Below, in pieces: positions 1 to 14,640 of a DNA stretch of 64,000 nucleotides. The stretch covers positions 13,453 to 77,452 of the forward strand of contig CANHGK010000008.1 in assembly GCA_947460235.1 (NCBI GenBank). The letters run 5' to 3'. The position numbers and the translations under genes were made by a program. Each line of letters starts with the position of its first letter. Positions within the stretch are counted from its first letter, which is position 1. This stretch comes from Paenibacillaceae bacterium (GTDB lineage Bacteria; Bacillota; Bacilli; Paenibacillales; CANHGK01). A model generated the notes under the pieces. It had not been told where the DNA came from and ran no database searches. It worked only from the letters and a program-made list of their open reading frames with translations.

Positions 1-76
1 GGACGGTTGACCGAACATTGATCATGGGTCGCGTGGATTGGATCGTTTATCCGTTTAATCAAATGAGGTCGTTTCA

Positions 77-1243
77 TTGAAGGATCATTGGATTTCGAAT
101 TATGATTGGTTTGCACTAAAAAATCAATTGTTAAGTAACCTTAGGGAATTCGGTGTTGATTTGATTGGGGTCGCGGATGCGAGGCCTTTTACAGAGTTGC
201 GGGAACGTTTGAATCAGTGGCACGATAATGGTTGGGCTTCTGGTTTCGAGGAACGCGATGTTGATTTACGCACAGAACCTAACCGCGCACTTGAATCTGG
301 TAGTGCTCGTTCGATCATTTCAATTGCAATCGCGTACCCTTCTAAATTGCTGAATCCTCCGAAATCGGAACTGGGTGCATATCGCGGAGTCATTGCTCGT
401 TCAGCGTGGGGGGAAGACTATCACACTGTTTTACGTGATCGGTTACAACGAATTCGAACATGGTTGATTTCGCGTGTCCCGGAAGCGGAAATTGTTTCTA
501 TGGTTGATACTGGCGTGTTATCGGACCGCGCGGTGGCGGAACGTGCTGGTATTGGTTTTAGTGGAAAGAATTGTTCGATTATTTCGCCTTCAATGGGTTC
601 GTGGTTATATCTCGGAGAATTGGTAACAAATTTACCTTTCGAAGCGGATATACCGATGCTTGATCAATGCGGAACATGTACAAAATGTATTGATGCATGT
701 CCGACGGGAGCGCTTGTCGGACCAGGACAGTTAAATGCACAAACATGTATTTCGTTAATTACGCAGTTAAAAGGTGTATTGGACGACGATCAAAAAAAAC
801 ATATTGGAAACCGATTATATGGGTGTGATACTTGCCAAGTCGTTTGCCCTTACAATAAAGGGATGGATTGGCACTTGCATCAGGAACTTGAACCAGATCC
901 AGCGTTGGCCAAACCACTGTTGAAACCGTTGATATCAATGAGTCAGCGCGTATTCCGTGATCAGTTTGGACGGACTGCAGCGGCTTGGCGAGGAAATGCG
1001 CCGATTCGCAGAAATGCGATTATTGGCTTGGGTCATTTTCGTGATGTAACGGCTGTACCGGAGTTGACGCGTGCCATGAATGAAGATGCGCGTGTAGAAA
1101 TACGGGAAGCGGCGGTTTGGGCGCTTGGAAGAATTGGTACGGATGATGCAAGGGACGCGCTCGTAAATCGGCTGGCGTCAAATCTAGAAGGAACTGAAGT
1201 TGTGATGAAAGCCTTGCAACAAGCATTGGCAACATTGAAGTGA
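77..1243 (+). CDS. queG: epoxyqueuosine reductase QueG
   Basis: Two 4Fe-4S ferredoxin motifs (CGTCTKCIDACP and CDTCQVVCPYN) are followed by C-terminal HEAT-like repeats. TTG start at 77 with a GAGGT RBS 7 nt upstream. Confidence 0.8.
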   Translation: MKDHWISNYDWFALKNQLLSNLREFGVDLIGVADARPFTELRERLNQWHDNGWASGFEERDVDLRTEPNRALESGSARSIISIAIAYPSKLLNPPKSELGAYRGVIARSAWGEDYHTVLRDRLQRIRTWLISRVPEAEIVSMVDTGVLSDRAVAERAGIGFSGKNCSIISPSMGSWLYLGELVTNLPFEADIPMLDQCGTCTKCIDACPTGALVGPGQLNAQTCISLITQLKGVLDDDQKKHIGNRLYGCDTCQVVCPYNKGMDWHLHQELEPDPALAKPLLKPLISMSQRVFRDQFGRTAAAWRGNAPIRRNAIIGLGHFRDVTAVPELTRAMNEDARVEIREAAVWALGRIGTDDARDALVNRLASNLEGTEVVMKALQQALATLK

Positions 1244-1267
1244 ACAAAATGTATGCGGAGGCGAAGC

Positions 1268-2296
1268 ATGCGATTACTACGGTTGGATCATGTCAAAGCT
1301 GGAATGATCATGATGAGCAATTTTGAAAAGTCACATCATAACATCATGATCAAAGAAGGAACTACTTTAACCGATTCGATGATCAACGCAATGCATCGCT
1401 GGGGTGTGAATTGGATTTATGTTTCTGGTGAGATAGAAACTAGAACAGCGTCCATTCCGGAATGGACGAAGGTTGAGACGTTTGAAGCGTTAAATGATGA
1501 ATTTGAAAATATTATTGAATGTATGAAGTATCACCGCGATTTACCAGCAAAACATCTAGATCAATTGCTCTGTAGATTGATCGTTGAACTTTCGGCGCAC
1601 AAAGCACAACTGTTTCAGTTGCGTGAAATTCGTTGTATTGAAAGAGATGATTTTTTACATGCATACCATGTCTGTGTACTTTCCTTAATGATTGGATTTC
1701 GGATGGAATTGCCATTTGAACAACTGAGAGCATTGGCGATCGGCGCATTTCTACATGACATTGGTAAATTTGACGTACATCATCTGGATTGTTCGTCCAA
1801 ACCAGAATTGCATCACACGTTTATTGGATATAAGAAGTTGAAAGGTGAACCGTTATTTCCTTTGCAATCATCACATGCGGCGTTAATGCATCACGAACAT
1901 GTGGATGGATCGGGAAAACCACGCGGGATAACAAGCAATGAAATGCATCAGATCGGTAAAATCGTCGGCATCGCGAACCGTTACGATCATTATTTTAGAG
2001 CATTAGCTCCATTTTCGGAAAATGATCCTCCTTTACAACACCATGATGTGTATGAACGAATGGTGGCTCAAGTGGGTGTCCAAAGTGATCATGATATTTT
2101 TCTGCATTTTTTGTCCTCTGTTGTCGTCTACCCTACAGGAGTTGAAGTGTTGTTGAATACGCATCAACATGCAATTGTGATCGTTCAACATCCTCACTTG
2201 CCTTCGCGGCCAATCATTCGTATCATAGACTCAGAACAAACTTTGCATGATTTGTCGAAAAATCCGAAATTGTTTATTATTGATGTGTTAACGTAA
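1268..2296 (+). CDS. HD-GYP-like domain protein with degenerate GYP motif (HHEHVDGSGKPRG)
   Basis: HD motif FLHDIGK and a HHExxDGxG-K-P block. The ATG at 1268 follows a GGAG RBS; the ORF-track start at 1253 lacks an RBS. Confidence 0.6.
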   Translation: MRLLRLDHVKAGMIMMSNFEKSHHNIMIKEGTTLTDSMINAMHRWGVNWIYVSGEIETRTASIPEWTKVETFEALNDEFENIIECMKYHRDLPAKHLDQLLCRLIVELSAHKAQLFQLREIRCIERDDFLHAYHVCVLSLMIGFRMELPFEQLRALAIGAFLHDIGKFDVHHLDCSSKPELHHTFIGYKKLKGEPLFPLQSSHAALMHHEHVDGSGKPRGITSNEMHQIGKIVGIANRYDHYFRALAPFSENDPPLQHHDVYERMVAQVGVQSDHDIFLHFLSSVVVYPTGVEVLLNTHQHAIVIVQHPHLPSRPIIRIIDSEQTLHDLSKNPKLFIIDVLT

Positions 2297-2302
2297 AGGA
2301 GA

Positions 2303-2542
2303 ATGACTATGTGGGTATATATCACGCCAGTGATCACGTTGATTGTAGGTCTAATAGGCGGCGCTGTAATTGGTTTTCAAGTTTTTAAGAAACAAATGAT
2401 GAGTCTCATGAATAACCCCGATCAAATGGCGTCGATGATGCGTCAAAATCCTGATATGTTAGAAAAGATGGGGCGTCAAATGGGCGCTAATTCCGCGCAA
2501 ATGAAAGCTGCAAAAAAAATGATGAATCGCCGTCCGCGATAA
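2303..2542 (+). CDS. yneF: UPF0154/YneF-like small membrane protein
   Basis: 79 aa with one N-terminal TM and a Met/Gln/Lys-rich tail (KKxMMxxMxxNP...MMRQ). RBS AAGGAG upstream. Confidence 0.5.
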   Translation: MTMWVYITPVITLIVGLIGGAVIGFQVFKKQMMSLMNNPDQMASMMRQNPDMLEKMGRQMGANSAQMKAAKKMMNRRPR

Positions 2543-2575
2543 AAGTTGCGAGAATGGCTACGGGGGACTTTCGAA

Positions 2576-3184
2576 ATGCCTAGTAAGGAATATCGCAATT
2601 CACATGTACAACAAAATCGCGAGCAATTGGAATTTCATGTGCGTGAAATTCTGCGACTTGTAGGTGAGAATCCTGAACGTGAAGGATTGATTGACACGCC
2701 TGCTCGCGTCGTAAGGATGTATGAAGAAATTTTTGGTGGTTACGCGGCGGATTCTGGGGAAGTGCTCGGGACACTTTTCGACGAAGCGCATGAAGAATTG
2801 GTTATTGTTAATGATATCGTGTTTTATAGTCAATGCGAACATCATATGGCACCATTTTTTGGGAAGGTCCATATAGGATATGTTCCAAGCGGGAAAATTT
2901 GTGGGCTAAGCAAATTTGCCCGACTTGTCGATACAGTAACGAAGCGTCTACAAGTTCAGGAACGAATTACTTCGCAATTGGCGGATTTAATTGCCGAAAC
3001 ATTAATTCCGCACGGCGTCATGGTTGTTGTCGAAGCAGAGCATCTTTGTATGTGCGCACGTGGTGTTCGAAAGTATGGAAGTCAAACGATTACATCTGCA
3101 GTGCGTGGACAATTTAAACGAGATGCTTCGTTACGTGGTGAATTTTTATCTTTGATTGGTAGAACGGCCGGCAAGTTGATTTAA
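2576..3184 (+). CDS. folE: GTP cyclohydrolase I FolE
   Basis: Conserved CEHHMAPF active-site block and [11 protein letters not shown] motif. ATG at 2576 follows a GGGGGA RBS. Confidence 0.85.
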
Positions 3185-3195
3185 TGAACATTGAA

Positions 3196-3252
3196 ATGTC
3201 GCGATACGAATGATTGATTTTGACGATCAAATTCGTTGCGACATTTTTTTAT
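3196..3252 (+). terminator. rho-independent terminator after folE
   Basis: Hairpin AATGTCGC...GCGACATT followed by a T7 run. Confidence 0.5.
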
Positions 3253-3277
3253 TCTCGATGAAAACATTATTTGAAAG

Positions 3278-6200
3278 ATGGTGTGGAACGTGAAAAAGAC
3301 ATGGATTGCATATCGATACCTACTCATCTGCGCAATTGTTTGCATCCTGTGGCTTCCTGCGTACTTAACTGCCTTAGCGGGCCCTGTCGGCGAAAAGGCT
3401 AACGCAATCCGTATTGCGAATTGGCCTAATGGATTTCAAAAAGATTCGGATTCGTTTCATGGTGGTGCATTTGATGGTAAGAATGTTTGGATGGCACCAT
3501 ATGATGCTGACCGTATCGTTAAGATTAATGTTGCAGATGGTGAGATGGGCTCAATTCGTGCTTTTCCAGATGGATACACGTATACGTCCGGAGCATTTAG
3601 TGGAGCAGTCTATGATGGCACTTCGGTTTGGTTCATTCCATTCAATGCAGAGCGGTTGATTAAGATTGATCCGATCACTCTAAAAGTTTCATATGGCCCA
3701 CAGTGGCCAAGTGATTTTAAGAAGATGCAATCCGCATTTGATGGCGGTGTTGTTATCGGTGATTATTTGTGGTTAATTCCCCATGCATCTGATAAATTAT
3801 TGCGTTTAAATATTAAAAATTTCGCGTGGGACGCGTATTCGAAATGGCCCAATAATTTTTCGCATGGTAATGGTGCATTTTCTGGTGGAGTAGCTTCGTT
3901 GGATGGAGGCACGCTTTGGTTGGTTCCGTCCGATGCGAATATGATCGTAAAAGTTAATGCTTCGAACGGTGAAATGACGGGAAACAATGCGTGGCCAATT
4001 GGATTTTCAAAAACGAATGGAGCATTTTCTGGAGGCGCTACAGATGGTAATGGTCTGTGGTTAGCACCAAAAAAAGCAGATAAATTGGTGCGACTTGATT
4101 TGGTGAGTGGTGGAATGACTAGTTTTGCGAAGTGGCCTGCGGGAATGTCAATTGGAATCAATGCGTTTTCTGGAGCGATATATGACGGGCGGGATATTTG
4201 GTTGACTCCGTATGGAGCGGATCGAATTGTTCGTGTCAAAACGAACGGAGAAATGAGTGCACCGATTACATGGCCAAATGGCTTAAACCGAGGGATTCAG
4301 GCGTTTCAAGGTTCGGTATTTGATGGTTCGGATTTATGGCTCATACCATCTTCGGCGGATGCTGTCTTGGAATTGGTTGGGAATCGAACTCCGACTGCGA
4401 ATGGATCAAGCATTCAATTAACTGAAGATATTCCATATAGCGGTTTGTTGTCAGCATCAGACCTGGATGCAGATCCGTTAAAATTTACGGTTGTCAAAAC
4501 ACCTTCTAAAGGTGTATTAACGTGGATAAATGATTCAACGGGAAACTATAAATATACTCCAAATCTAAATGCGAATGGATCGGATACCTTTACCTATCGG
4601 GTAAGTGATGGAGTTACCTTTTCTAGCGAGGCAACCGTTTCGGTTTCGATTGCAAATGAGAATGATCCACCTGTTGTGAATGCACTTACCATACAAGCGC
4701 GTGAAGATGAATCCAAAACTGGAATTGGGATCGCTAATGATCCAGAGTTAGATGCATTAGAATATCAGATTGTTTCAAATGGTTCAAAAGGAACGTTTAC
4801 TTTTACGAACAATAAGACCGGTGAATTTTTATATGTGCCAACACCGGATCAGAACGGAAGTGACGAAGTTTCGGTACGCGTTAAAGACGGGAAATTGTTT
4901 TCGAATACCGTTAAATGGCAAGTGAATATTGTTCCTGTTAATGATATGCCGATTGCAAAGGACGTTACATTGCAAACGAATGAAGATCTTGCTGTTCAAT
5001 CGAATTTGAAGGCTTCGGATATTGATGGCGATGCACTTTCCTATGAATTCATTCAACAACCAACGCATGGGAATGTGATGATCTCAGATATTACAAAAGG
5101 AACTGTGATTTATAAACCAGATGAAAATTATTTCGGTTCTGATCAATTTGTTTATACGGTATCAGATGGCCTTTTAACATCGGCGCCTGCGAATGTTAAA
5201 ATTAATATTGCACCGATTGACGATGCACCTGAATTAAGTAGTGCAAATTTTACAGTAGTTCAAGGCGTTTCATTGCATGAACAATTAACTGCTAGTGATT
5301 TGGAGAATGATCCGTTAACATTTGAAATCGTCTCACCTCCTACGCACGGTAAATGGAGTTGGATTAATGCAGCAGATGGGAGATTTACGTACGAACCCGA
5401 GTTGAATTGGACTGGAATTGAAACGATTCAAGTTGATGTAACGGATAATGTATTGAAATCGGAAGTGAAATCGATTTCGATTGTTGTTTCGCCGACCGTA
5501 AAAAAACCAGTTGAAGTAAAGCAAGAGTTTCAGGTGACGAGTGGTGTTTATACCGTTAATCGATTAAATGTTCCGAATTCTGAGCAGAATGATTTGACGT
5601 TTGCACTCATGCTGAATCCTGGAAAAGGGAAGTTTGAATGGATCGACAATCAACACGGGTATTTTTACTATCAATCCAAAAGTGGTTTTATTGGTGATGA
5701 CGAATTTGAATATTTAGTTAAGGATTCTGGCATATATTCTGAAATGGGTAAAATCATTTTGCACGTGTTGGCTGCAACGAATGCTCCAATTAATACGGTG
5801 AGCCCGACTCCTTCGCCTACGTCAGTCCCAACAAATAAGCCAACAGTGTCAATCACGCCATCACCTACACCTTTAATTGTGAATAGTCAATCTCCAGCAG
5901 TTTTGCTGTCAAATACACCAGCACCTACAGTATTGGTTTCAGCATCACCGAATGCGACTTCGGTGAATCAACAGAGTCATACGCCGTCTCCAACATCTGT
6001 AATTAATGTTTTGACAAATAATCCTAATGCAACAAGTTCATCAACACCGATTGCACCTGTTGCAACGCCAGTCGTGATTCCGCAAATTGTATACATTCCT
6101 TACTATATTGAAGTGACGCCGATTCCTACGGCTACTTCGACGCCTGTGATGATACCGAATCCTACACCAACGTTGGAAATTAAAAAAATAAACGTTACAG

Positions 6201-7207
6201 TTACACCGGTTCCGTTGTCGAAAGTGGTGAATATGCCAGAATTACATTCGAATCATGGATTGGACTGGGTGGAAATAGATGATCAGACATTGAATCAAGA
6301 AATTTCCAAAACAATCCCTTTGAAAATAATTGGCCAGAAAAATAAAGAAATTCAGTTCGAAGAAGTTGTTAATGATGATCAAAAGGTGTTATCAATGATT
6401 ATGAATGATCAATTGGTACTACGTCCGAATGATTCGTTTTTCACAATTAATTTTTCGGGAAAGCGAGTAAGCAAACCGGTGTCGATTACGATTAGGGCAT
6501 CGGATCGAATGGGGAATTGGTCTGATCAAATTGTGCTTGTTGATGTTCGCGAAGTTCAGCGTGTGGAAATTTCTGCATTGAATGATGTAGTACTACCTTT
6601 GCCTGAAGAATGGAAAATGCAATTGAATGCTGGAGCGAATTCGAAAAAAGCTGCGTTTATGAAGGTTGTTAAAATTCCTGTGACAATCGAAGTTCAAAAT
6701 CGCGATGAAGAAATGATGGTAAGTGCTCAGACGGATAGTGCGTGTGGTTTGCAAGTGGATGGGTTTAACGGGAAGTCAATATTGTCTGAGGACGAGTCCA
6801 GCCGAACATATTACTTGAATGTCGTTGTTACCGACCGTTCGTCATTACGTCCATGTCATGTAGAAGTGACAGCAACCAGTGAAGGTCTTTTGCCTCGCTC
6901 ACAATCGTTTACGATTACTCCCGAAAATGTTCGTCCGAAACTAAACTTTATTAATCCATTAATGGTTATTAAATCAAACCAGCGCAGATTAATCACAATT
7001 AAGGCGACCGATCCGAATCAAGATCGCTTGACGTATTCTGTTAAAGGTGGAAATGATCAGACGGTGAAATTGACTCGTCAAGGTAATGTTTGGTTTTTAA
7101 AACCTGCGCCTTCTTATAAAACGACCACAGGTGTTAAGTTTTCTGTCAGGGTTGAGGATGGAAGGGGCGGGTTTGATTCCAAAACGTTCCGAGTAATTGT
7201 TAAATAA
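3278..7207 (+). CDS. large secreted repeat protein: signal peptide, 7 propeller-like ~47-aa repeats, 4 cadherin/BIg-like ~95-aa repeats, Pro/Thr/Ser-rich linker, C-terminal domain
   Basis: N-terminal hydrophobic signal. Seven copies of AFSGGxxDGxxLWLxPxxADxIV(K/R)(V/I)...WPxGF. Four repeats with DxDxDPLxF...Y(T/K)PxxNxxGSDxFTYxVSDG. Low-complexity PT(S) stretch at nt ~5770-6230. No LPXTG or SLH motif seen. Confidence 0.6.
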   Translation: MVWNVKKTWIAYRYLLICAIVCILWLPAYLTALAGPVGEKANAIRIANWPNGFQKDSDSFHGGAFDGKNVWMAPYDADRIVKINVADGEMGSIRAFPDGYTYTSGAFSGAVYDGTSVWFIPFNAERLIKIDPITLKVSYGPQWPSDFKKMQSAFDGGVVIGDYLWLIPHASDKLLRLNIKNFAWDAYSKWPNNFSHGNGAFSGGVASLDGGTLWLVPSDANMIVKVNASNGEMTGNNAWPIGFSKTNGAFSGGATDGNGLWLAPKKADKLVRLDLVSGGMTSFAKWPAGMSIGINAFSGAIYDGRDIWLTPYGADRIVRVKTNGEMSAPITWPNGLNRGIQAFQGSVFDGSDLWLIPSSADAVLELVGNRTPTANGSSIQLTEDIPYSGLLSASDLDADPLKFTVVKTPSKGVLTWINDSTGNYKYTPNLNANGSDTFTYRVSDGVTFSSEATVSVSIANENDPPVVNALTIQAREDESKTGIGIANDPELDALEYQIVSNGSKGTFTFTNNKTGEFLYVPTPDQNGSDEVSVRVKDGKLFSNTVKWQVNIVPVNDMPIAKDVTLQTNEDLAVQSNLKASDIDGDALSYEFIQQPTHGNVMISDITKGTVIYKPDENYFGSDQFVYTVSDGLLTSAPANVKINIAPIDDAPELSSANFTVVQGVSLHEQLTASDLENDPLTFEIVSPPTHGKWSWINAADGRFTYEPELNWTGIETIQVDVTDNVLKSEVKSISIVVSPTVKKPVEVKQEFQVTSGVYTVNRLNVPNSEQNDLTFALMLNPGKGKFEWIDNQHGYFYYQSKSGFIGDDEFEYLVKDSGIYSEMGKIILHVLAATNAPINTVSPTPSPTSVPTNKPTVSITPSPTPLIVNSQSPAVLLSNTPAPTVLVSASPNATSVNQQSHTPSPTSVINVLTNNPNATSSSTPIAPVATPVVIPQIVYIPYYIEVTPIPTATSTPVMIPNPTPTLEIKKINVTVTPVPLSKVVNMPELHSNHGLDWVEIDDQTLNQEISKTIPLKIIGQKNKEIQFEEVVNDDQKVLSMIMNDQLVLRPNDSFFTINFSGKRVSKPVSITIRASDRMGNWSDQIVLVDVREVQRVEISALNDVVLPLPEEWKMQLNAGANSKKAAFMKVVKIPVTIEVQNRDEEMMVSAQTDSACGLQVDGFNGKSILSEDESSRTYYLNVVVTDRSSLRPCHVEVTATSEGLLPRSQSFTITPENVRPKLNFINPLMVIKSNQRRLITIKATDPNQDRLTYSVKGGNDQTVKLTRQGNVWFLKPAPSYKTTTGVKFSVRVEDGRGGFDSKTFRVIVK

Positions 7208-7222
7208 ACTAACATTATAATT

Positions 7223-7258
7223 TGACTTTGTGTGTAATGTTCGTGTATTATCATTTCA
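7223..7258 (+). promoter_or_regulatory. putative sigma-A promoter for the riboswitch-operon transcript
   Basis: TTGACT (7223) then ~18 nt then TATTAT, about 10 nt upstream of the riboswitch 5' end. Confidence 0.3.
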
Positions 7259-7274
7259 AGAAGATGAAAACACG

Positions 7275-7406
7275 ATATATCGACCTAGGGTTCCGTAGTT
7301 GTTGTTAATTTATATGACACACTAGCTGGTCCGAGAGGTAAAGAGTTCTGATGTTGATCTGTTTCAACCGATGAACTTACACACGGAGGGATAAAAGCCC
7401 GGGAGG
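7275..7406 (+). promoter_or_regulatory. guanidine-I riboswitch aptamer (ykkC/yxkD leader class)
   Basis: Conserved blocks CUAGGGUUCCG (7285-7295), GGUCCGAGAG (7328-7337) and ACACGGAGGGAUAAAAGCCCGGGAGG (7381-7406). Downstream gene context (TauA/NMT1-type ABC transporter plus ureohydrolase) is the classical guanidine-I context. Confidence 0.75.
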
Positions 7407-7431
7407 TTATGCATACTCCGCGGGCTTTTTG
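7396..7431 (+). terminator. riboswitch expression-platform terminator
   Basis: AGCCCGGGAG ... CUCCGCGGGCU stem with one bulge, followed by U5. The 5' arm is the 3' end of the aptamer, so the two structures are mutually exclusive. Confidence 0.6.
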
Positions 7432-7457
7432 TGTTCAAAAAAAGAGGAGGAATTGAG

Positions 7458-8501
7458 ATGAGCATGCCAGTAGCAATGAAATGGAGAAAGATGTTTGTGA
7501 TTTTTGCGGTAATCGTTGTATGCGTGTCAATGATGTTGTCAGGATGTGCAACGACGAATACTACGCAGAGTGAAACAGAGGGATCTTCAGATCAACCGAT
7601 TCAAATTGCACTGAGTCCTTGGCCGGGTTGGTACATCTGGTATTTGGCCGAGGAAAAAGGATTTTTCAAAAAACGTGGTGTGAATGTGGAACTGAAGTGG
7701 TTCCCTGTGTATAGCGATTCCTTGCAAGCATTATCTACGGGCCAAGTCGATGCAAATAGCCAGACATTGAGCGATACATTGGCGCCTCTTTCGAAGTCGA
7801 TTCCCTTAAAAGTGGTGTTGGTTAATGATAACTCGAATGGCGGCGATGCGATCGTAAGTAAGCCGGGCATCAACTCGATCGCTGACTTGAAAGGCAAAAC
7901 CGTTGCAACGGAACTTGGTACGGTCGACCATCTATTGCTGCTGACTGCTCTTGCGAATGCTGGAATGAAAGAAACAGACATCAATTATGTGAATATGACC
8001 GTCAATGATGCTGGACCTGCTTTTATTAATGGGAAAGTGGATGCGGCTGTGTTATGGGAGCCGTTCCAAACGAAAGCAGTTAAAGATGGCGGCGGAAAAG
8101 TATTATTCTCATCGAAAGAAACGCCTGGATTGATTCCTGATTTACTCGTGTTCAAAGCAGAAACAGTAGAGAAACGCGGCGATGATATTCAAAAAGTCGT
8201 CAACGCGTGGTTTGATGCATTAGCTGAATTGAAAGCTCATCCGGACGAGTCCATTGCCATTTTGGCGAAAAAAGCTGAGCAGACCCCAGCGGAGTTCAAA
8301 GAAGGATTGGATACGATCAAAGTGTTTACGAAAGCAGATAATATTAAAGCGTTTGATGCATTGGATGGATATGAGTCACTCTCCTTTACAGGCGGGAAAA
8401 CAGCGGAATTCTTACAAGGGTTGGAGATGGTTAGTTCCATTCCAGACGTAAAGGCAGCGCTTGAACCGAAGTTTGTGAAAGCTGCAGAAGCGGCGGAATA
8501 A
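7458..8501 (+). CDS. ABC transporter substrate-binding lipoprotein, NMT1/THI5 (SsuA/TauA-like) family
   Basis: Lipobox LSGC after signal peptide; NMT1-like periplasmic binding fold. ATG 7458 with a GGAGG RBS; the GTG at 7431 lies inside the terminator. Confidence 0.8.
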   Translation: MSMPVAMKWRKMFVIFAVIVVCVSMMLSGCATTNTTQSETEGSSDQPIQIALSPWPGWYIWYLAEEKGFFKKRGVNVELKWFPVYSDSLQALSTGQVDANSQTLSDTLAPLSKSIPLKVVLVNDNSNGGDAIVSKPGINSIADLKGKTVATELGTVDHLLLLTALANAGMKETDINYVNMTVNDAGPAFINGKVDAAVLWEPFQTKAVKDGGGKVLFSSKETPGLIPDLLVFKAETVEKRGDDIQKVVNAWFDALAELKAHPDESIAILAKKAEQTPAEFKEGLDTIKVFTKADNIKAFDALDGYESLSFTGGKTAEFLQGLEMVSSIPDVKAALEPKFVKAAEAAE

Positions 8502-8540
8502 TGGTTGGATGAATGGGATGGTTGGAGGAGGGCGAATCAA

Positions 8541-9299
8541 TTGAAGCAAAAAAAATATCTCGGATACTGGGCAATTAGTTCGTTTCTTCTCCTGTTTGGT
8601 GGATGGTTAGCGCTCAGTGAAAGCGGAGTGATGAATCCGACATTTTTGCCATCGCCTTTCGTGGTGTTCAAAACGATGGTGAAATTGCTCGGAACAGAGC
8701 AATATTGGACGCATATTGGCATGAGTTGTTTTCGAGTGGTAGCCGGTTTCTTGTTAGCGGTTGTAATTGGTGTACCACTTGGATTATTGGCAGGATATTC
8801 GAGGCGCGGAGCTGCATTTATTGAACCTCCGATGGAATTTATTCGTTATATGCCAGCAGTTGCGTTTATTCCGCTCGTGATGATATGGGCGGGGATCGGC
8901 GAATGGGCAAAAGTGATTATTATTTTTATCGGATGTTTTTTTCAGTTGGTGCTGATGGTAGCGGACATTACGAGGCGAGTAAATAAAGACTGGATCGATG
9001 CTGCGAGGACGATGGGTGCGACGCGCTGGGGTGTACTAGAGACGATCATTATTCCTGCGATCCGCCCAGAGTTGATGAATGGACTTCGATTATTGCTTGG
9101 ATGGGCTTGGACCTATTTGGTTGTTGCTGAGCTCGTCGCAGTAAATAGTGGTCTTGGATACGCAATTATGAAGGCGCAGCGGTTTTTGAATACAGATCAA
9201 ATTTTTGTTGGGATGATTGTGATCGGAGCACTAGGATTGATTAGTGATCGCGTATTCGCCTATTGTAACAAACGATTTTTCCCGTGGGCGCAATCCTAA
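8541..9299 (+). CDS. ABC transporter permease (binding-protein-dependent inner-membrane component)
   Basis: 6 TM with an EAA-like loop (AARTMGATRWGVLETIIIPAIRP). A TTG at 8541 follows GGAGGAGGG at the right spacing; an alternative ATG at 8505 has no RBS. Confidence 0.7.
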   Translation: MKQKKYLGYWAISSFLLLFGGWLALSESGVMNPTFLPSPFVVFKTMVKLLGTEQYWTHIGMSCFRVVAGFLLAVVIGVPLGLLAGYSRRGAAFIEPPMEFIRYMPAVAFIPLVMIWAGIGEWAKVIIIFIGCFFQLVLMVADITRRVNKDWIDAARTMGATRWGVLETIIIPAIRPELMNGLRLLLGWAWTYLVVAELVAVNSGLGYAIMKAQRFLNTDQIFVGMIVIGALGLISDRVFAYCNKRFFPWAQS

Positions 9300-9336
9300 G
9301 TGATGAGTGGGTTTGATAGATAGGGAGTGAATGTAG

Positions 9337-10092
9337 ATGTCAGCAGCTATAGAATTACAAAAACTCGGTAAAACGTTCGAGAGTAACCAAGGCATCGTCC
9401 ATGCACTTGAAGAAATCGAACTCTCCGTTCAAGCGGGAGAATTCGTGAGCGTACTTGGACCGAGTGGATGCGGCAAATCAACGATGCTTCGAATTTTGGC
9501 GGGACTAGAACCATATACGAGTGGACAAATCATTTGTGATGATCGCGTAATTACTGGTCCTGGTGCGGACCGTGGCATGGTTTTTCAGGCGTATACGCTT
9601 TTCCCGTGGTTAACCGTACGTGAAAATATCGAATATGGCCTCAAATTAGCAGGTAAACATATTTTTGAGCGTCGTCGTATTTCGGGGGCATGGCTCGATC
9701 GGATTGGATTATCGAGCTTTGCGAAGCACTATCCGAATCAATTGTCTGGTGGGATGAAACAGCGCGTGGCAATCGCACGTGCGTTAGCGAATAAACCGAA
9801 AGTTCTGCTCATGGACGAACCCTTTGGAGCGCTCGATGCACATACGAAATTAATGATGCAGCGGTTGTTGCAAGCATTGTGGGTGGATGAACGGCCGACG
9901 GTTGTGTTTATTACGCATGATGTTGATGAGGCGATTTATTTGGGGCAACGGGTCGTGGTGATGGGTGCAAGACCAGGGCGGATTGTAAAAGAATATCAGG
10001 TACACTTGCCAGAAAAACGCACCGAAGAAGTTCGAGGAAATGCACATTTTATTGAATTGCGAAAAATGTTATTACAAGATCTGGAACATTAA
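9337..10092 (+). CDS. ABC transporter ATP-binding protein
   Basis: Walker A GPSGCGKST, signature LSGGMKQR, Walker B LLMDEPFGALD. Confidence 0.85.
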   Translation: MSAAIELQKLGKTFESNQGIVHALEEIELSVQAGEFVSVLGPSGCGKSTMLRILAGLEPYTSGQIICDDRVITGPGADRGMVFQAYTLFPWLTVRENIEYGLKLAGKHIFERRRISGAWLDRIGLSSFAKHYPNQLSGGMKQRVAIARALANKPKVLLMDEPFGALDAHTKLMMQRLLQALWVDERPTVVFITHDVDEAIYLGQRVVVMGARPGRIVKEYQVHLPEKRTEEVRGNAHFIELRKMLLQDLEH

Positions 10093-10115
10093 ACAATTTA
10101 GAGAGAACATGGAGT

Positions 10116-11273
10116 GTGACGGATATGGCATTTTGGGATCAGCACGGATTAAACGCGCGGCGATTACAAAATAATGTGGAAGAATCAAAGGGAGATTTGC
10201 ATGGCATTCAGGCAGCGCATGCCGAGGCATTATTGCCAAGTACACGTGCAGACGCAGAAATTAAACGGGGTTTAGAGCTAGGACTTGAAGGTGCGGCAAG
10301 CATTGGTGATCGGACGATTTCTTGTTTTTCACGGGGCGAGTTGCCGCATTATGCGGGGATTAACACATTTTTGAAAATGCCGTATTTGGAAGATGTGCGA
10401 AGAGTCGGCGAGTATGATGCAGCAATTCTCGGTGTACCATTTGATATTGGTACGACCTATCGCTCAGGAACGCGTTTTGGTCCGCAGGCAATTCGCCGAA
10501 TTTCCGCTTTGTATCAAACGTACAATTATGAACTCGGTGTGGACTTGCGCGAGCAATTGAAACTATGCGATCTTGGAGATGTATTCACGATAGCGAATAT
10601 CGAGAAAAGTTTTGATCAAATTACAAAAGCCGTATCTCATGTAATGAGTCAAGGCACGATGCCGATTATTCTCGGTGGTGATCATTCAATCGGATATCCT
10701 TGTGTGCGCGGGGTCGCAGAAAACATTGACGGCGACATCGGAATTATTCATTTGGATCGTCATATCGACATTCAGGAAAAAGACATGGATGAGCGCATGC
10801 ATACGACGCCTTGGTTTCATGCAACCAATATCAAAAACGCAAAGCCGAAAAATCTCGTACAAATCGGGATCGGCGGCTGGCAAGTGCCGCGTGCCGGAGT
10901 TCAGGTAGGTCGTGAGCGCGGTACGACGATCATGACGATTAATGATGTCGAGACGCTTGGGATTGATAAAGTTGCTGAGATGGCGCTTGAAGTGGCGTGG
11001 AAAGGCTGTAAAGCGGTTTACTTGAGCTTTGATATTGATTCAATTGATTGCGGATTTGTGCCAGGGACGGGATGGCCTGAACCGGGAGGCTTTTTACCGC
11101 GCGAAGCACTTAAGTTAATGCAATTGGTGGCAAAAGAAGGACTGGCAGCGATGGAAGTTGTTGAAGTTGCGCCGGCCTATGATATTAGTGATACGACGGC
11201 GTTGCTCGCGGCACGTGCGGTACTTGATGTACTGGCAACGATGACGGCGCACGGAAAAATTGGAGGAAAGTAA
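10116..11273 (+). CDS. arginase/agmatinase-family ureohydrolase (candidate guanidine hydrolase)
   Basis: Ureohydrolase metal-site motifs GGDHSIGYP, HLDRHIDI and SFDIDSIDCGFVPGTG. The start is uncertain (GTG 10116 or ATG 10125). The stop overlaps the cbiM start. Confidence 0.7.
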   Translation: MTDMAFWDQHGLNARRLQNNVEESKGDLHGIQAAHAEALLPSTRADAEIKRGLELGLEGAASIGDRTISCFSRGELPHYAGINTFLKMPYLEDVRRVGEYDAAILGVPFDIGTTYRSGTRFGPQAIRRISALYQTYNYELGVDLREQLKLCDLGDVFTIANIEKSFDQITKAVSHVMSQGTMPIILGGDHSIGYPCVRGVAENIDGDIGIIHLDRHIDIQEKDMDERMHTTPWFHATNIKNAKPKNLVQIGIGGWQVPRAGVQVGRERGTTIMTINDVETLGIDKVAEMALEVAWKGCKAVYLSFDIDSIDCGFVPGTGWPEPGGFLPREALKLMQLVAKEGLAAMEVVEVAPAYDISDTTALLAARAVLDVLATMTAHGKIGGK

Positions 11274-11933
11274 ATGCACATCCCTGACGGATTTTTGGAT
11301 GCCAAAACATGGATCAGTACAACGCTACTTGGCGGGGCGGTGGTTATGTTGGCTTCGCGTAATGCCCAAGTAGGTTTGAAACGTGAACAAGTTCCCAAAA
11401 TGGGTCTGTTAGGGGCATTTATTTTTGCGACGCAAATGGTTAATTTTCCGATTGCTGGAGCAACTTCAGGACATTTTCTCGGCGGTGCAATGGCGGCAAT
11501 TTTGTTTGGACCTTGGGTCAGTGTGTTGTTGATGAGTGCAGTGCTGATTATTCAAGCGTTTATTTTTCAAGATGGTGGTGTAACCGTGCTGGGAGCAAAC
11601 ATCTTGTGTACAGGAGTTCTCGGTAGTTTTGCAGGGTATGGGATGTATCGTTTCCTTGGAGTACGGGGGTTTCAATGGCTTAGTGAATCAGTCAAAATTT
11701 TCACGGCTGCGTGGTGTTCAATTGTAGCTGCGGCGAGTGGTGTTTCGTTGTTACTTGCTTTATCAGGTACAATGCCACTTGCCATAGGATTACCGGCCAT
11801 GACAGGTTGGCATAGTTTGATTGGGATTGGTGAAGGCTTGATTAGTGTTTGGGTAATCGCTTATTGGCGCAAGGCGCAGGCCGTCGCTTCACCGATATTG
11901 GTTGATACGAATCAAAGCGGTGAACACCGATGA
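11274..11933 (+). CDS. cbiM: CbiM/NikM substrate-specific component of Ni/Co transporter
   Basis: Begins MHIPDGFLD, the processed N-terminus typical of CbiM/NikM. About 6 TM. The ATG directly abuts the upstream stop. Confidence 0.8.
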   Translation: MHIPDGFLDAKTWISTTLLGGAVVMLASRNAQVGLKREQVPKMGLLGAFIFATQMVNFPIAGATSGHFLGGAMAAILFGPWVSVLLMSAVLIIQAFIFQDGGVTVLGANILCTGVLGSFAGYGMYRFLGVRGFQWLSESVKIFTAAWCSIVAAASGVSLLLALSGTMPLAIGLPAMTGWHSLIGIGEGLISVWVIAYWRKAQAVASPILVDTNQSGEHR

Positions 11934-12199
11934 AGTTGCCGAATATGAAGTTATGGATCGGTGTTGTCGTAGTAATGGTTGTTTGTGGTGTCTTATCGTA
12001 TTTTTCTTCAACATCACCGGATGGACTCGAGCGCGTGGCAGTTGACCTAGGATTTTCTAATCAAGAGAAAACGTATTGGTCGAATGCGCCAGTAGCGAAT
12101 GGTCAATATGGAATCATGGGATGGATAGGCGTCGCACTCGTATTCGGACTCGTCTGGTTATGGGGACGCATCGTTACGAAAGGCAAAGATCGGGGATAG
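11930..12199 (+). CDS. PDGLE-domain small membrane protein (CbiN-like partner of CbiM)
   Basis: 89 aa with 2 TM and an SPDGLERVA motif. ATGA start/stop overlap with cbiM. Confidence 0.55.
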   Translation: MKLPNMKLWIGVVVVMVVCGVLSYFSSTSPDGLERVAVDLGFSNQEKTYWSNAPVANGQYGIMGWIGVALVFGLVWLWGRIVTKGKDRG

Positions 12200-12203
12200 T
12201 TAC

Positions 12204-13757
12204 ATGAAAAAAAGTGCACAATCGATTAAATATCGTACAGCGGGATTGCTCGTTGTACTCATGAGCATGGTGCTATGGTCGGACGAGCGTGTGTTAATTG
12301 GATATAGTGTAGTTCTTTGTTTATTCATGTGGTGGAGCGGGTTATCGCTTCGAGAGGCGGGGCAACGATTGTTGTTACTCATTCCTTTCGGTGCGGGAAC
12401 ACTCGCTTTTTTGCCGTTCCATGGACATGAGGTTGTGGTCGGTGATGTGATGGGGTGGCACGTATATGAAGATGGACTCACGAAGGCGATTGGTTTGCTA
12501 TTAAAAATGGTCAATGCGAGTTTGATCCTTAGTATGATGTTGCATAAGATTGATTCGGGGCAATTTTTTCATAGTTTGCGTGCGCTCGGATTGCCGAAAT
12601 TATTGACTGAGCTGTTGCAACTGATGATGCGCTATGTTCATGTGCTAGGGGAAGAAGCTCGGTCCATGGTACTTGCTCAAAAGGCGCGAGGATTTCGGGC
12701 ACAAGGTTGGTGGTGGTCGATCAACAATTATCGACGTTTTGGGCAGTTGATGGGTGTTTTATTTGTGCGAAGTTTACGGCGCAGTGAGCGAGTTGATTTG
12801 GCGATGCGTTCACGCGGGGAACGTGAATGGTTTGGGGGTACTGACATGGAAACGTCTATGGAAAAATCGTTAAGTGGTCGCTCGGAATGGGCCGTAGAAA
12901 TGAAGGGTGTCGGTTACTCCTATGCAGGAAGTAACTCACTAGCACTGCGCGGAATCGATTTGTCGATTCGAAGTGGGAGTAAAACGGTATTGATGGGGAT
13001 GAATGGTGCGGGGAAATCGACGCTCATTTCGTTATTGAACGGACTGGCGCAGGTCTCAAAGGGAATGTATCGTTTGTTCGGACAAGAAATTACGGAGAAA
13101 AATGCGATGCATGCGAGGCGTGGTGTCGGTGTCGTTTATCAGGACCCTGATGATCAATTGTTTTCGCCAACGGTCTCAGAAGACATCGCATATGGTCCAT
13201 CGAATATGGGCCTATCGGAATCGGAAATTGAAGATCGTGTTACATATGCGATTGGTGCAGTTGGGTTGAGCGCTTTGGCAGATAAGTCTCCGTTTGAACT
13301 TAGTTACGGACAGAAGCGGCGAGTTGCAATTGCCGGTGTGATGGCGATGCGACCACCAATGATGGTGCTCGATGAACCAATGGCCTATCTTGATCCGCGT
13401 GGTCGGGATGAATTGCAGGCATTGCTTGAACAGTTGCATTTGATGGGAACAACCCTCATCGTAGCGACGCACGATGTTGATTTTGCTGCAGAATGGGCAG
13501 ATCATGTGATCATTTTGCGCGACGGGAAAGTACTTGCTGAAGGGGATGTTTCGCTTTTATTCGATGAAAAAATTGTGTATGAAGCAGGGCTGCATTTGCC
13601 GAGGTTGGTCAGACCATTTCGATTGTTGCAAGGCGCAGGCGATGTGAAACCGCGCACGGTTCGACAAGCGGCGCAAGAAATGTGGCGTTTGATTTTGAAA
13701 GGGACGAATGCAGAAACGAAGCATGACGAGCAAAATCAACTCAAATCTTTTCGTTGA
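12204..13757 (+). CDS. fused CbiQ (T component) - CbiO (ABC ATPase) of Ni/Co transporter
   Basis: N-terminal ~220-aa polytopic membrane domain. C-terminal ABC domain with Walker A GMNGAGKST, signature LSYGQKRR and Walker B MVLDEPMAYLD. Confidence 0.75.
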   Translation: MKKSAQSIKYRTAGLLVVLMSMVLWSDERVLIGYSVVLCLFMWWSGLSLREAGQRLLLLIPFGAGTLAFLPFHGHEVVVGDVMGWHVYEDGLTKAIGLLLKMVNASLILSMMLHKIDSGQFFHSLRALGLPKLLTELLQLMMRYVHVLGEEARSMVLAQKARGFRAQGWWWSINNYRRFGQLMGVLFVRSLRRSERVDLAMRSRGEREWFGGTDMETSMEKSLSGRSEWAVEMKGVGYSYAGSNSLALRGIDLSIRSGSKTVLMGMNGAGKSTLISLLNGLAQVSKGMYRLFGQEITEKNAMHARRGVGVVYQDPDDQLFSPTVSEDIAYGPSNMGLSESEIEDRVTYAIGAVGLSALADKSPFELSYGQKRRVAIAGVMAMRPPMMVLDEPMAYLDPRGRDELQALLEQLHLMGTTLIVATHDVDFAAEWADHVIILRDGKVLAEGDVSLLFDEKIVYEAGLHLPRLVRPFRLLQGAGDVKPRTVRQAAQEMWRLILKGTNAETKHDEQNQLKSFR

Positions 13758-13783
13758 GTGAATAGATAATCGAGCGTATAATT
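13752..13783 (+). promoter_or_regulatory. putative sigma-A promoter for PilZ gene
   Basis: TTGAGT, 17-nt spacer, TATAAT. Confidence 0.35.
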
Positions 13784-13819
13784 TGATTATCTAATTTCGC
13801 GACAAATGAGGTGTTTAGC

Positions 13820-14233
13820 TTGGACGCAGTTTCAAATCAACGAGTGCATCCGCGGATCTCGATTAGTGGAAAGATCAAATTTTCGTTTATTGCATTTAAA
13901 ATTGGTGAAAACGGCAAATATGAAGAAGATATTTCAATTATTGAAACACAAATTCGCGATATTTCCCTTGGCGGCATCAGCTTTGAAGATGTGCGAAGTT
14001 ATGAGCCTGGCATGAAAGGGTATATTTTTATTGTAATCGGACGCAGAAGATATGCACTCGTTGGTGAAGTTGTACGGTGTATTTCAGGCCAAAATGCGTA
14101 TCAAGTCGGAATCGCATTAGATAAAAATTTGAATGATGATGGAATGTTTGAACCGAGTGAAGAAATTGTGGAATTAATTCAGCGCTTAGAAGTATTACTT
14201 GAACATGATCCGAATTATACGAACATCACGTAA
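13820..14233 (+). CDS. PilZ-domain protein (c-di-GMP receptor family), paralog A
   Basis: RxxxR motif (QRVHPR) and DxSxGG motif (RDISLGG). TTG 13820 follows a GAGGTG RBS. Confidence 0.65.
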   Translation: MDAVSNQRVHPRISISGKIKFSFIAFKIGENGKYEEDISIIETQIRDISLGGISFEDVRSYEPGMKGYIFIVIGRRRYALVGEVVRCISGQNAYQVGIALDKNLNDDGMFEPSEEIVELIQRLEVLLEHDPNYTNIT

Positions 14234-14247
14234 TTGGAGGACGGACT

Positions 14248-14598
14248 ATGTTTCAGCGCATTCCATTGGATGAGCCGATTAAGACGCATTGGGTGCTGCG
14301 TTTTTTTATTTTGTTTTTACCTTGTTTGTTCGTTCGGTTTGCCGTTGGTCCAATTCAAGCACATTTAGGAATTTTGCCGGGCAGTTTTTACTGGTTCGGC
14401 ATTTTATATTTTCCGATGACAAATTGGACGATATATTGGGTGATGTTTACGATTCGTGTAGGAATCAATCGGATCGCCGGAAATGAGCGGATTACCGTTC
14501 CTAAATTGCGGAAATTTTATCGTTGGTACTTAAACGTGCCGGGTGGATTGGTATTATCGGAGTTGGTATTTCAGGGCTATTTGTATAATGCGGGATAA
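14248..14598 (+). CDS. hypothetical membrane protein
   Basis: 116 aa, 3 predicted TM. GGAGG RBS upstream; no recognisable motif. Confidence 0.4.
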   Translation: MFQRIPLDEPIKTHWVLRFFILFLPCLFVRFAVGPIQAHLGILPGSFYWFGILYFPMTNWTIYWVMFTIRVGINRIAGNERITVPKLRKFYRWYLNVPGGLVLSELVFQGYLYNAG

Positions 14599-14611
14599 GA
14601 ATGGACGTGGA

Positions 14612-14640
14612 TCACTCATTCGAGTGGTCTTTTTTTTGCA
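14612..14640 (+). terminator. weak rho-independent terminator
   Basis: GATCACTC-ATTC-GAGTGGTC hairpin followed by T8. Confidence 0.35.

Follow-up and report, generated by a model that had tools for sequence, protein, structure and literature searches.

A guanidine-I riboswitch upstream of a GdmH-type hydrolase and predicted guanidine and nickel transporters in Paenibacillaceae

A 64-kb stretch of DNA from a Paenibacillaceae bacterium (called the window below, and the whole portion of this genome that was examined) carries a guanidine-I riboswitch followed by seven + strand open reading frames (ORFs), all co-directional and spanning positions 7458-13757. In our judgment this region is likely to be a guanidine-assimilation operon, wherein an ATP-binding cassette (ABC) importer, a Ni-dependent guanidine hydrolase of the GdmH family, and a co-induced energy-coupling factor (ECF) transporter for nickel lie behind one riboswitch. 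The elements, their order, the coupling of their genes, their orthology, and their conservation in other genomes are direct readings of sequence and computation. The locus is composed of the following features, where no strand is assigned to the two predicted GlnR/TnrA boxes.

7198-7214, no strand: predicted GlnR/TnrA box 1, TGTTAAATAAACTAACA, a match to TGTNAN7TNACA
7222-7251, + strand: sigma-70-type promoter-like site, TTGACT / 18 nt / TATTAT, 10/12 consensus matches
7274-7407, + strand: guanidine-I (ykkC subtype 1) riboswitch aptamer, RF00442
7303-7319, no strand: predicted GlnR/TnrA box 2, TGTTAATTTATATGACA, a match to TGTNAN7TNACA
7393-7434, + strand: intrinsic terminator (expression platform), a hairpin and U-run judged by folding against shuffles
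7458-8501, + strand: substrate-binding lipoprotein of the NMT1/SsuA family, TauA/GimA-like (PF09084, TIGR01728, lipobox)
8505-9299, + strand: ABC importer permease, TauC/SaoP-like (Pfam, NCBIfam)
9337-10092, + strand: ABC importer ATPase (PF00005, 120 bits)
10125-11273, + strand: GdmH-type guanidine hydrolase, arginase fold, in an ORF that opens at GTG 10116
11274-11933, + strand: ECF S-component, NikM/CbiM type (PF01891, 184 bits)
11930-12199, + strand: two-helix membrane subunit with a PDGLE domain, 89 aa (PF13190, 39 bits)
12204-13757, + strand: fused CbiQ/NikQ T-component and CbiO/NikO ATPase, 517 aa (PF02361, PF00005)
13758-13800, + strand: AU-rich hairpin with a short U-tract, just past the last stop codon (z -2.2)

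All seven genes were assigned with both Pfam and NCBIfam, and the assignments agree with the content listed in the initial annotation of this region, namely an ABC importer, an arginase-family hydrolase, and the parts of a Ni/Co transporter. That annotation had counted eight ORFs; the number is seven, with the CbiQ-CbiO fusion being a single ORF. Its description of co-directional, tightly spaced genes is accurate in that all lie on the same strand, are joined by TAAATG and ATGA junctions, and are otherwise separated by gaps of 40 nt or less. Direct reading recovers the TAA-ATG junction of the GdmH and CbiM genes at 11271-11276 and the ATGA overlap of the CbiM and PDGLE genes at 11930-11933, whereas the further ATGA overlap claimed at 12204 is instead a TAG stop codon at 12197-12199, a 4-nt gap, and then an ATG. 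The arrangement exceeds what chance would produce, as gene order and riboswitch recur together in at least four other genomes.

The riboswitch leader and its nitrogen boxes

When the whole window was searched against Rfam at the gathering threshold, no riboswitch was returned. Dismissal of the riboswitch on the basis of this miss was overturned by a local search judged by E value and by the leaders of orthologous operons. In the local search, nucleotides 7274-7407 match the full length of the RF00442 model with 58.9 bits and an E value of 5e-10 (the gathering score is 63), and the deficit stems from two loop insertions of 21 and 24 nt. The conserved core segments of the aptamer, CUAGGGUUCCG, CUGGUCCGAGAG, and ACACGGAGGGAUAAAAGCCCGGGAG, are all present. 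Furthermore, the orthologous leaders of a Bacillales metagenome-assembled genome (MAG), Paenibacillus swuensis, P. alkalitolerans, Effusibacillus lacus, and Cohnella luojiensis score 66.7-85.8 bits against the same model, all above the gathering score, and an alignment of six sequences exhibits compensatory changes in 9 of the 18 predicted aptamer pairs. With its full core, this covariation, and these higher-scoring relatives, the RNA is a genuine guanidine-I aptamer, upstream of the operon as had been proposed, and it is predicted to bind guanidine.

The terminator at 7393-7434 has a predicted folding energy of -23.8 kcal/mol (z -4.1), which none of 200 shuffled sequences equaled, and UUUUUGUGUU follows directly after its hairpin. 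Its 5' arm, AAAAGCCCGGGAG, is also the 3' strand of the aptamer, with GCCCGGGAG being the stretch common to both structures. Because the terminator and the aptamer compete for this strand, the leader is expected to function as a transcriptional ON-switch, a design that is standard for guanidine-I riboswitches. An equivalent hairpin and T-run is retained in the leaders of the Bacillales MAG, P. swuensis, and P. alkalitolerans. The putative promoter, identified by its consensus match only, lies 23 nt 5' of the aptamer start.

Two predicted boxes for the regulators GlnR and TnrA were found with the consensus TGTNAN7TNACA; this consensus and the role of site position have been described previously (PMC6191146, PMC9948412). 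Box 1 lies 7 nt 5' of the -35 hexamer and, with its center about 52 nt ahead of the predicted transcription start at ~7258, occupies an activator-type position. Box 2 falls in the aptamer's long variable loop; at approximately +45 to +61 it has a repressor-type position, and the loop insertion that carries it is one of the two that depress the Rfam score. The sites described for GlnR of Paenibacillus polymyxa have the same geometry, with activation exerted upstream of the -35 element and repression downstream of the start. These are the only two boxes in the 64 kb, a total that is itself the chance expectation, and both lie at this promoter and leader. Boxes at positions equivalent to that of box 1, 55-160 nt 5' of the aptamer, are also present in the Bacillales MAG, P. 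swuensis, P. alkalitolerans, and C. luojiensis, and across six loci 8 of 12 boxes are concentrated in 1.6% of the sequence. This distribution suggests that the operon is controlled by nitrogen status together with guanidine, with GlnR as the predicted binding protein.

A GdmH ortholog coupled to an ECF transporter

The closest matches to the hydrolase among Protein Data Bank (PDB) sequences are the guanidinase of Nitrospira inopinata (9FEK, 526 bits) and GdmH of Synechocystis (7ESR/7OI1, 503 bits), to which it is 64% and 63% identical, respectively, over approximately 350 residues. The next PDB family is guanidinobutyrase, with 168 bits, and agmatinases reach at most 139 bits. The arginase fold is recognized with 272 bits by PF00491, and the motifs of the six metal ligands, GGDH, HxDRHxD, and SFDxDxxD, as well as the segment GTGWPEPGG, are invariant in an alignment of 16 homologs. 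The latter segment contains the active-site tryptophan that has been discussed for both guanidinase structures (PMC11410670). Members of the GdmH family depend on Ni2+ and act specifically on free guanidine (PMC11410670, PMC12186494, PMC12704784). The ORF opens at GTG 10116, but an identical database protein of 382 aa points to ATG 10125, which is probably the true start. The enzyme is a close GdmH ortholog, and it is expected to share the nickel dependence of the family.

Upstream of the hydrolase gene, the binding lipoprotein (7458-8501) matches PF09084 with 99 bits and TIGR01728 with 212 bits (cut-off 163.5), carries the lipobox LSGC, and is preceded at 8 nt by the Shine-Dalgarno sequence GGAGG. 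The permease may truly start at TTG 8541, as there is a 252-aa gene call for the identical sequence. Homologous importers adjoin GdmH in most of 80 genome loci, and we regard the three proteins as a TauABC/GimABC-like importer whose predicted substrate is guanidine.

Downstream, positions 11274-13757 encode all four ECF functions according to Pfam and NCBIfam. The S-component begins with Met-His, and its alignment to TtNikM2 is free of gaps through the metal site; it scores 86 bits to that protein (4M58) compared to 52 bits to RcCbiM (5X3X). In the S-component alignment, M1, H2, H67, Q94, G101, G102, N109, and E187 are invariant and H180 is nearly so. Met1, His2, and His67 form the metal site of TtNikM2, and a His/Glu pair takes part in a hydrogen-bond network (PMC3945884). 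Every Ni-binding residue of the crystallized protein is retained here.

The small PDGLE subunit had been called 'CbiN-like'. The PDGLE domain is present, but the likeness to CbiN does not hold, given that Pfam yields no CbiN match and the NCBIfam CbiN model gives 21.7 bits against a cut-off of 115. Instead, a Ferviditalea protein of Nik(MN) architecture, in which M and N are fused, carries a C-terminal extension that is homologous to this subunit (E 3e-13). CbiN is specific to Co systems, and NikN is unrelated to it (PMC2667541). By architecture and context, the small subunit appears to be of the NikN type.

In the fused protein (12204-13757), CbiQ occupies residues ~16-205 (PF02361, 97 bits) and CbiO residues ~231-480 (PF00005, 101 bits), and the ECF ATPase model TIGR04521 gives 240 bits, short of the 330 set as its equivalog cut-off. 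The fusion is conserved in the Bacillales MAG, P. swuensis, P. alkalitolerans, and three GdmH-less genomes described below, whereas Q and O are separate genes in Effusibacillus and Ammoniphilus. ECF complexes contain one T-component and two ATPase domains. A 1:1 Q-O fusion poses a stoichiometry question, which could be answered if the fusions dimerize or if translation also starts internally. The window contains no cobalamin riboswitch detectable with Rfam and no B12 gene. Together with the non-CbiN PDGLE subunit and the adjacent nickel enzyme, these observations favor nickel as the predicted substrate.

The proposed mechanism is as follows. The GlnR boxes would probably confine expression to nitrogen limitation, when the promoter at ~7222-7251 would fire. 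If guanidine is absent, then the terminator at 7393-7434 would form and transcription would end at 7434. If guanidine is bound, the aptamer would hold the 5' arm of the terminator, and RNA polymerase would proceed through the seven genes as one predicted transcript. The TauABC/GimABC-like ABC importer would take up guanidine, and GdmH, with Ni2+ in its two-metal site, would split it into urea and ammonium. The ECF-type Nik(M-N-QO) transporter would boost the nickel supply as the nickel enzyme is made, and urease, acting downstream, would also need nickel. The co-induced nickel importer would occupy the place that the GhaA/GhaB genes hold in cyanobacterial operons.

Recurrence in other genomes and competing explanations

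A genome scan with a GdmH alignment gave 80 loci, to which twelve targeted look-ups added more, and the neighbors were tallied over 89 loci by jackhmmer searches with Pfam-verified seeds. The jackhmmer 'CbiO' family spread to all ABC ATPases, and only CbiM, PDGLE, and CbiQ were counted as ECF markers; ORF calling was crude in high-GC loci. The loci that join GdmH to a candidate metal transporter are listed here.

Bacillales MAG (L001), Paenibacillus swuensis (L083, CP011388), and P. alkalitolerans (L085): riboswitch, importer, GdmH, CbiM, PDGLE, and fused CbiQ-CbiO
Effusibacillus lacus (L086): the layout of the window with its riboswitch, but with Q and O separate
Ammoniphilus (L089): GdmH-CbiM-PDGLE-CbiQ-CbiO, with neither an importer nor a riboswitch
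Alkalihalobacterium (L037): GdmH followed by an ECF ATPase, together with divergent CbiM and CbiQ
Virgibacillus (L030): GdmH followed by an ECF ATPase
Desulfotomaculum nigrificans (L088): a GdmH paralog followed by a NicO permease

In the 89-locus tally, the ECF link to GdmH is limited to Bacillota, and within this phylum the association of GdmH with a transporter recurs in several independent arrangements, including one with the unrelated Ni/Co permease NicO. No riboswitch was detected before GdmH in Ammoniphilus, Alkalihalobacterium, or Virgibacillus at E <= 0.01, and the ECF link in these three is not riboswitch-based. In three loci, from Planctomycetota and Chloroflexota (L021, L027, L067), the genes directly after GdmH encode HypA and HypB. 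The same HypA/HypB seeds that detect these three loci with jackhmmer find neither HypA nor HypB/UreG in the 64-kb window, and UreD and NicO are likewise absent from it.

The GdmH-less genomes are three Paenibacillaceae. Cohnella luojiensis (L090, ~3880-9650) carries the riboswitch and importer, a 209-nt gap, and then the ECF module, with no hydrolase. In P. curdlanolyticus and P. cellulosilyticus (L091 and L092, ~1-9700), the module comes directly after a guanidine carboxylase pathway cluster. We know of no nickel requirement for the guanidine carboxylase pathway, and retention of a nickel pump beside it in these two genomes is puzzling. The next gene after all three modules is spoVT. In the gaps that precede them, tblastn finds no GdmH remnant and no Rfam family is matched. 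The Cohnella gap (~6840-6950) carries a promoter-like site, a leader of ~60 nt, a CCCGGGA...TCCCGGG hairpin, and a T-run, which may be an attenuator or a riboswitch of an unknown class.

Several observations weigh against our interpretation. The window aptamer is 4 bits below the Rfam gathering cut-off, and HypA/HypB could be encoded beyond the visible 64 kb. Homologous ECF modules, with S-components 53-60% identical, adjoin guanidine clusters without GdmH in all three of the GdmH-less Paenibacillaceae genomes sampled, where the gap before each holds a promoter-like site and a TGTNAN7TNACA palindrome, and the gap ahead of the L091 module also holds a strong terminator. Therefore, the module is not exclusive to GdmH, and it may be a general nickel importer for nitrogen limitation that serves, for example, urease, residing beside guanidine genes by shared Paenibacillaceae descent and having no role in GdmH maturation. 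In those genomes it is its own unit with its own promoter-like site and its own GlnR/TnrA box; urease must process the urea that GdmH releases; urease accessory genes are found 2-7 kb from GdmH in eight other loci; and Bacillus subtilis ureABC is a GlnR/TnrA target. Because GlnR-boxed modules stand alone where GdmH is missing, adjacency is weaker evidence for a GdmH-specific role. The initial annotation's reading of a Ni-dependent hydrolase with its own importer is supported by the orthology of the enzyme to known Ni-guanidinases, the retained Ni-binding residues, and the recurrence across Bacillota, but adjacency alone counts for less than was assumed there. We nevertheless consider a module unrelated to GdmH unlikely. 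The window and four other genomes couple it translationally to GdmH, the interval being free of promoters, terminators, and GlnR boxes, and distant Bacillota join GdmH to ECF parts or NicO in different ways, which argues for function over inherited synteny. Moreover, no urease gene is present in the window, and this explanation overlaps with a GdmH-linked pump, since one pump could serve both enzymes. The data are consistent with a nickel importer for nitrogen limitation that was later coupled translationally to gdmH in the lineages that carry this gene.

The remaining alternatives concern the extent of the transcript, the metal, and the enzyme. Another point that speaks against a single operon is the occurrence of five weak + strand hairpin+T matches within it (9891, 11455, 11730, 12393-12406, and 13457), and a promoter-like match is also located at 8473-8502, such that the seven genes might be divided among several transcripts by internal promoters or terminators. 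There is precedent in Synechocystis, where the importer genes have an internal promoter (PMC12704784). However, the terminator-like stems are short, and their number over a 10-kb region (14, compared to 8.9 +/- 2.6 in shuffles) is only about 2 sd above chance. No + strand promoter-like site was found between 8502 and 13754, the GdmH/CbiM and CbiM/PDGLE genes abut or overlap, the PDGLE and QO genes are 4 nt apart, and this order is kept together with the riboswitch. Division into several transcripts is therefore improbable. The initial annotation placed the first terminator-like structures past 13757, which is correct for strong ones, the first of which is at 14609-14630, but overlooks the five weak internal matches. 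Regarding the metal, a further difficulty is that the binding residues are common to NikM and CbiM and that the site also fits Co2+ (PMC3945884), so the S-component does not decide between them. The Pfam and NCBIfam names CbiM, CbiQ, and CbiO would likewise accord with import of cobalt, be it for making B12 or for loading the hydrolase with Co. Even so, we find cobalt very hard to reconcile with a small subunit that is not CbiN, a window free of cobalamin riboswitches and B12 genes, an S-component that is nearer to TtNikM2 than to RcCbiM, and a partner enzyme from a Ni-dependent family. Finally, the hydrolase passes the agmatinase model TIGR01230 by 0.7 bits (175.0 versus a cut-off of 174.3), and homologs are named 'agmatinase' in their sources. 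The same label had been given to Synechocystis GdmH (Sll1077), which proved not to be an agmatinase (PMC12623156, PMC12186494). We rejected the label here as a misannotation of the same kind, with more than 500 bits to guanidinases versus 133-168 to agmatinases and guanidinobutyrase. Its gene also lies under a guanidine-specific riboswitch, and we see almost no chance that the enzyme is an ordinary Mn-dependent agmatinase or guanidino-acid hydrolase.

The genes flanking the operon are unrelated to it, with a cadherin-like surface protein gene upstream, and genes for a PilZ protein, an unannotated ORF, and a sensor kinase downstream. A promoter-like site (TTGAGT / 17 nt / TATAAT, 13754-13782, 10/12) shares nucleotides with the stop codon of the final operon gene, and an AU-rich inverted repeat of 12 bp extends across its -10 box, 5' of the PilZ-domain gene (13811-14233). 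The hairpin at 13758-13800 is possibly a weak terminator, or an operator of the promoter-like site of this next gene. The ORF at 14248-14598 (116 aa) matches no family, and a terminator-like hairpin (14281-14304) lies within it soon after its start; the ORF may not be a real gene.

GdmH-clade proteins number 4,832 at E <= 1e-60 in a database search. The census also revealed other recurrent neighbors of GdmH. In 34 loci, mostly from Alphaproteobacteria (e.g. L069, 11130-11627), a protein of ~140-180 aa with an extremely His-rich N-terminus is encoded directly 3' of GdmH. It has no Pfam or NCBIfam match, and its PDB matches were discarded as matches to His tags; we consider it a candidate for an undescribed nickel-binding partner of GdmH. 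A protein of ~600 aa is encoded directly 3' of GdmH in 22 loci, often overlapping the GdmH stop codon (e.g. L018, 11139-12977), from Bryobacteraceae, Planctomycetota, Verrucomicrobiota, Myxococcota, and Poribacteria. This protein, again with no Pfam or NCBIfam match, may be another accessory factor. In Kyrpidia (L084, 7001-11615) and Thermogemmatispora (L087, 7001-11588), GdmH is accompanied by a weakly metallophosphoesterase-like protein of 316 aa, an APC permease, and an unannotated protein of ~247 aa, a comammox-like layout with two uncharacterized conserved partners. The Desulfotomaculum nigrificans cluster (L088, 1-8586) combines two GdmH-family paralogs, NicO, three NMT1-type binding proteins, an isochorismatase-family protein, and a pyruvoyl-dependent arginine decarboxylase. 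In both Virgibacillus (L030, 9287-9757) and Alkalihalobacterium (L037, 9357-9830), the gene immediately 5' of GdmH encodes an HSP20/alpha-crystallin protein, perhaps as a response to the protein-denaturing effect of guanidine.

Implications and comparison with known systems

Hydrolysis by GdmH is a recently recognized route from guanidine to nitrogen and, in comammox bacteria, also to energy. The loading of GdmH with Ni rather than Mn is understood only where HypA/HypB-like maturases exist, and the Firmicute operons suggest a second solution, in which a dedicated nickel pump is switched on with the enzyme. A bolder proposal, which we put forward tentatively and do not ourselves favor, is that Bacillota guanidinases are metallated without HypA/HypB, that the coupled, guanidine-induced ECF importer suffices and replaces GhaA/GhaB, and that GlnR and riboswitch sensing are combined, with a GlnR operator inside an aptamer loop. 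If true, this would account for nickel acquisition by guanidinases that lack a chaperone, the comammox enzyme among them. The ~600-aa and His-rich families beside GdmH in other phyla are candidates for further nickel-delivery factors, and the seven-gene cassette could serve to express active guanidinase in other hosts.

The gdmH-ghaA-ghaB-gimABC cluster of Synechocystis sp. PCC 6803 (sll1077-sll1082) resembles the window in having a guanidine-I riboswitch, GdmH, and a TauABC-like guanidine importer. In contrast, it encodes the HypA/HypB-like maturases GhaA and GhaB, whereas the window has none and instead carries an ECF-type Ni transporter coupled to gdmH. Here the hydrolase gene comes after the importer genes, in Synechocystis it comes before them, and the switch in the window, unlike that of the cyanobacterial cluster, is a transcription terminator in a Firmicute. 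Control by NtcA plus riboswitch in Synechocystis (PMC12704784) is paralleled by the predicted GlnR/TnrA boxes plus riboswitch, suggesting that different phyla reached the same regulatory logic.

The comammox locus of N. inopinata, comprising a guanidine-I riboswitch, an APC permease, and a guanidinase, is likewise under riboswitch control and has no nearby Ni chaperone, but it uses an APC permease rather than an ABC importer for uptake, and only the window has a dedicated Ni importer. The route by which that guanidinase is loaded with Ni has been termed 'unclear' (PMC11410670). The metformin hydrolase operon of Aminobacter and Pseudomonas (hypA-hypB-mefH alpha/beta-hupE) also pairs a GdmH-related Ni-ureohydrolase with a nickel transporter, yet the latter is the secondary permease HupE, HypA/HypB are present, metformin is the substrate, and there is no riboswitch (PMC11399263). 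TtNikM2 and RcNik(MN)QO share with the window the square-planar Met1-His2/His67 site, a small two-helix partner, a T-component, and an ATPase. These NikMNQO systems have urease or hydrogenase as partner and NikR as regulator, whereas the window has GdmH, a guanidine riboswitch, and fused Q-O. Nik/CbiMNQO genes often adjoin urease genes, and a neighboring Ni enzyme is the usual basis for Nik naming (PMC2667541).

A Ni transporter inside a Ni-enzyme operon is thus an already known theme, exemplified by HupE and by urease-linked Nik/CbiMNQO. The initial annotation had presented a guanidine module with its own metal importer as new, and this judgment applies to the combination rather than to the general principle. 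No earlier description of GdmH together with an ECF Ni transporter was found in the literature searched, which left out Funck et al. 2022 and Sinn et al. 2021. As far as can be told, what is apparently new is the union of a guanidine riboswitch, GdmH, and a translationally coupled ECF Ni importer, with no HypA/HypB beside them.

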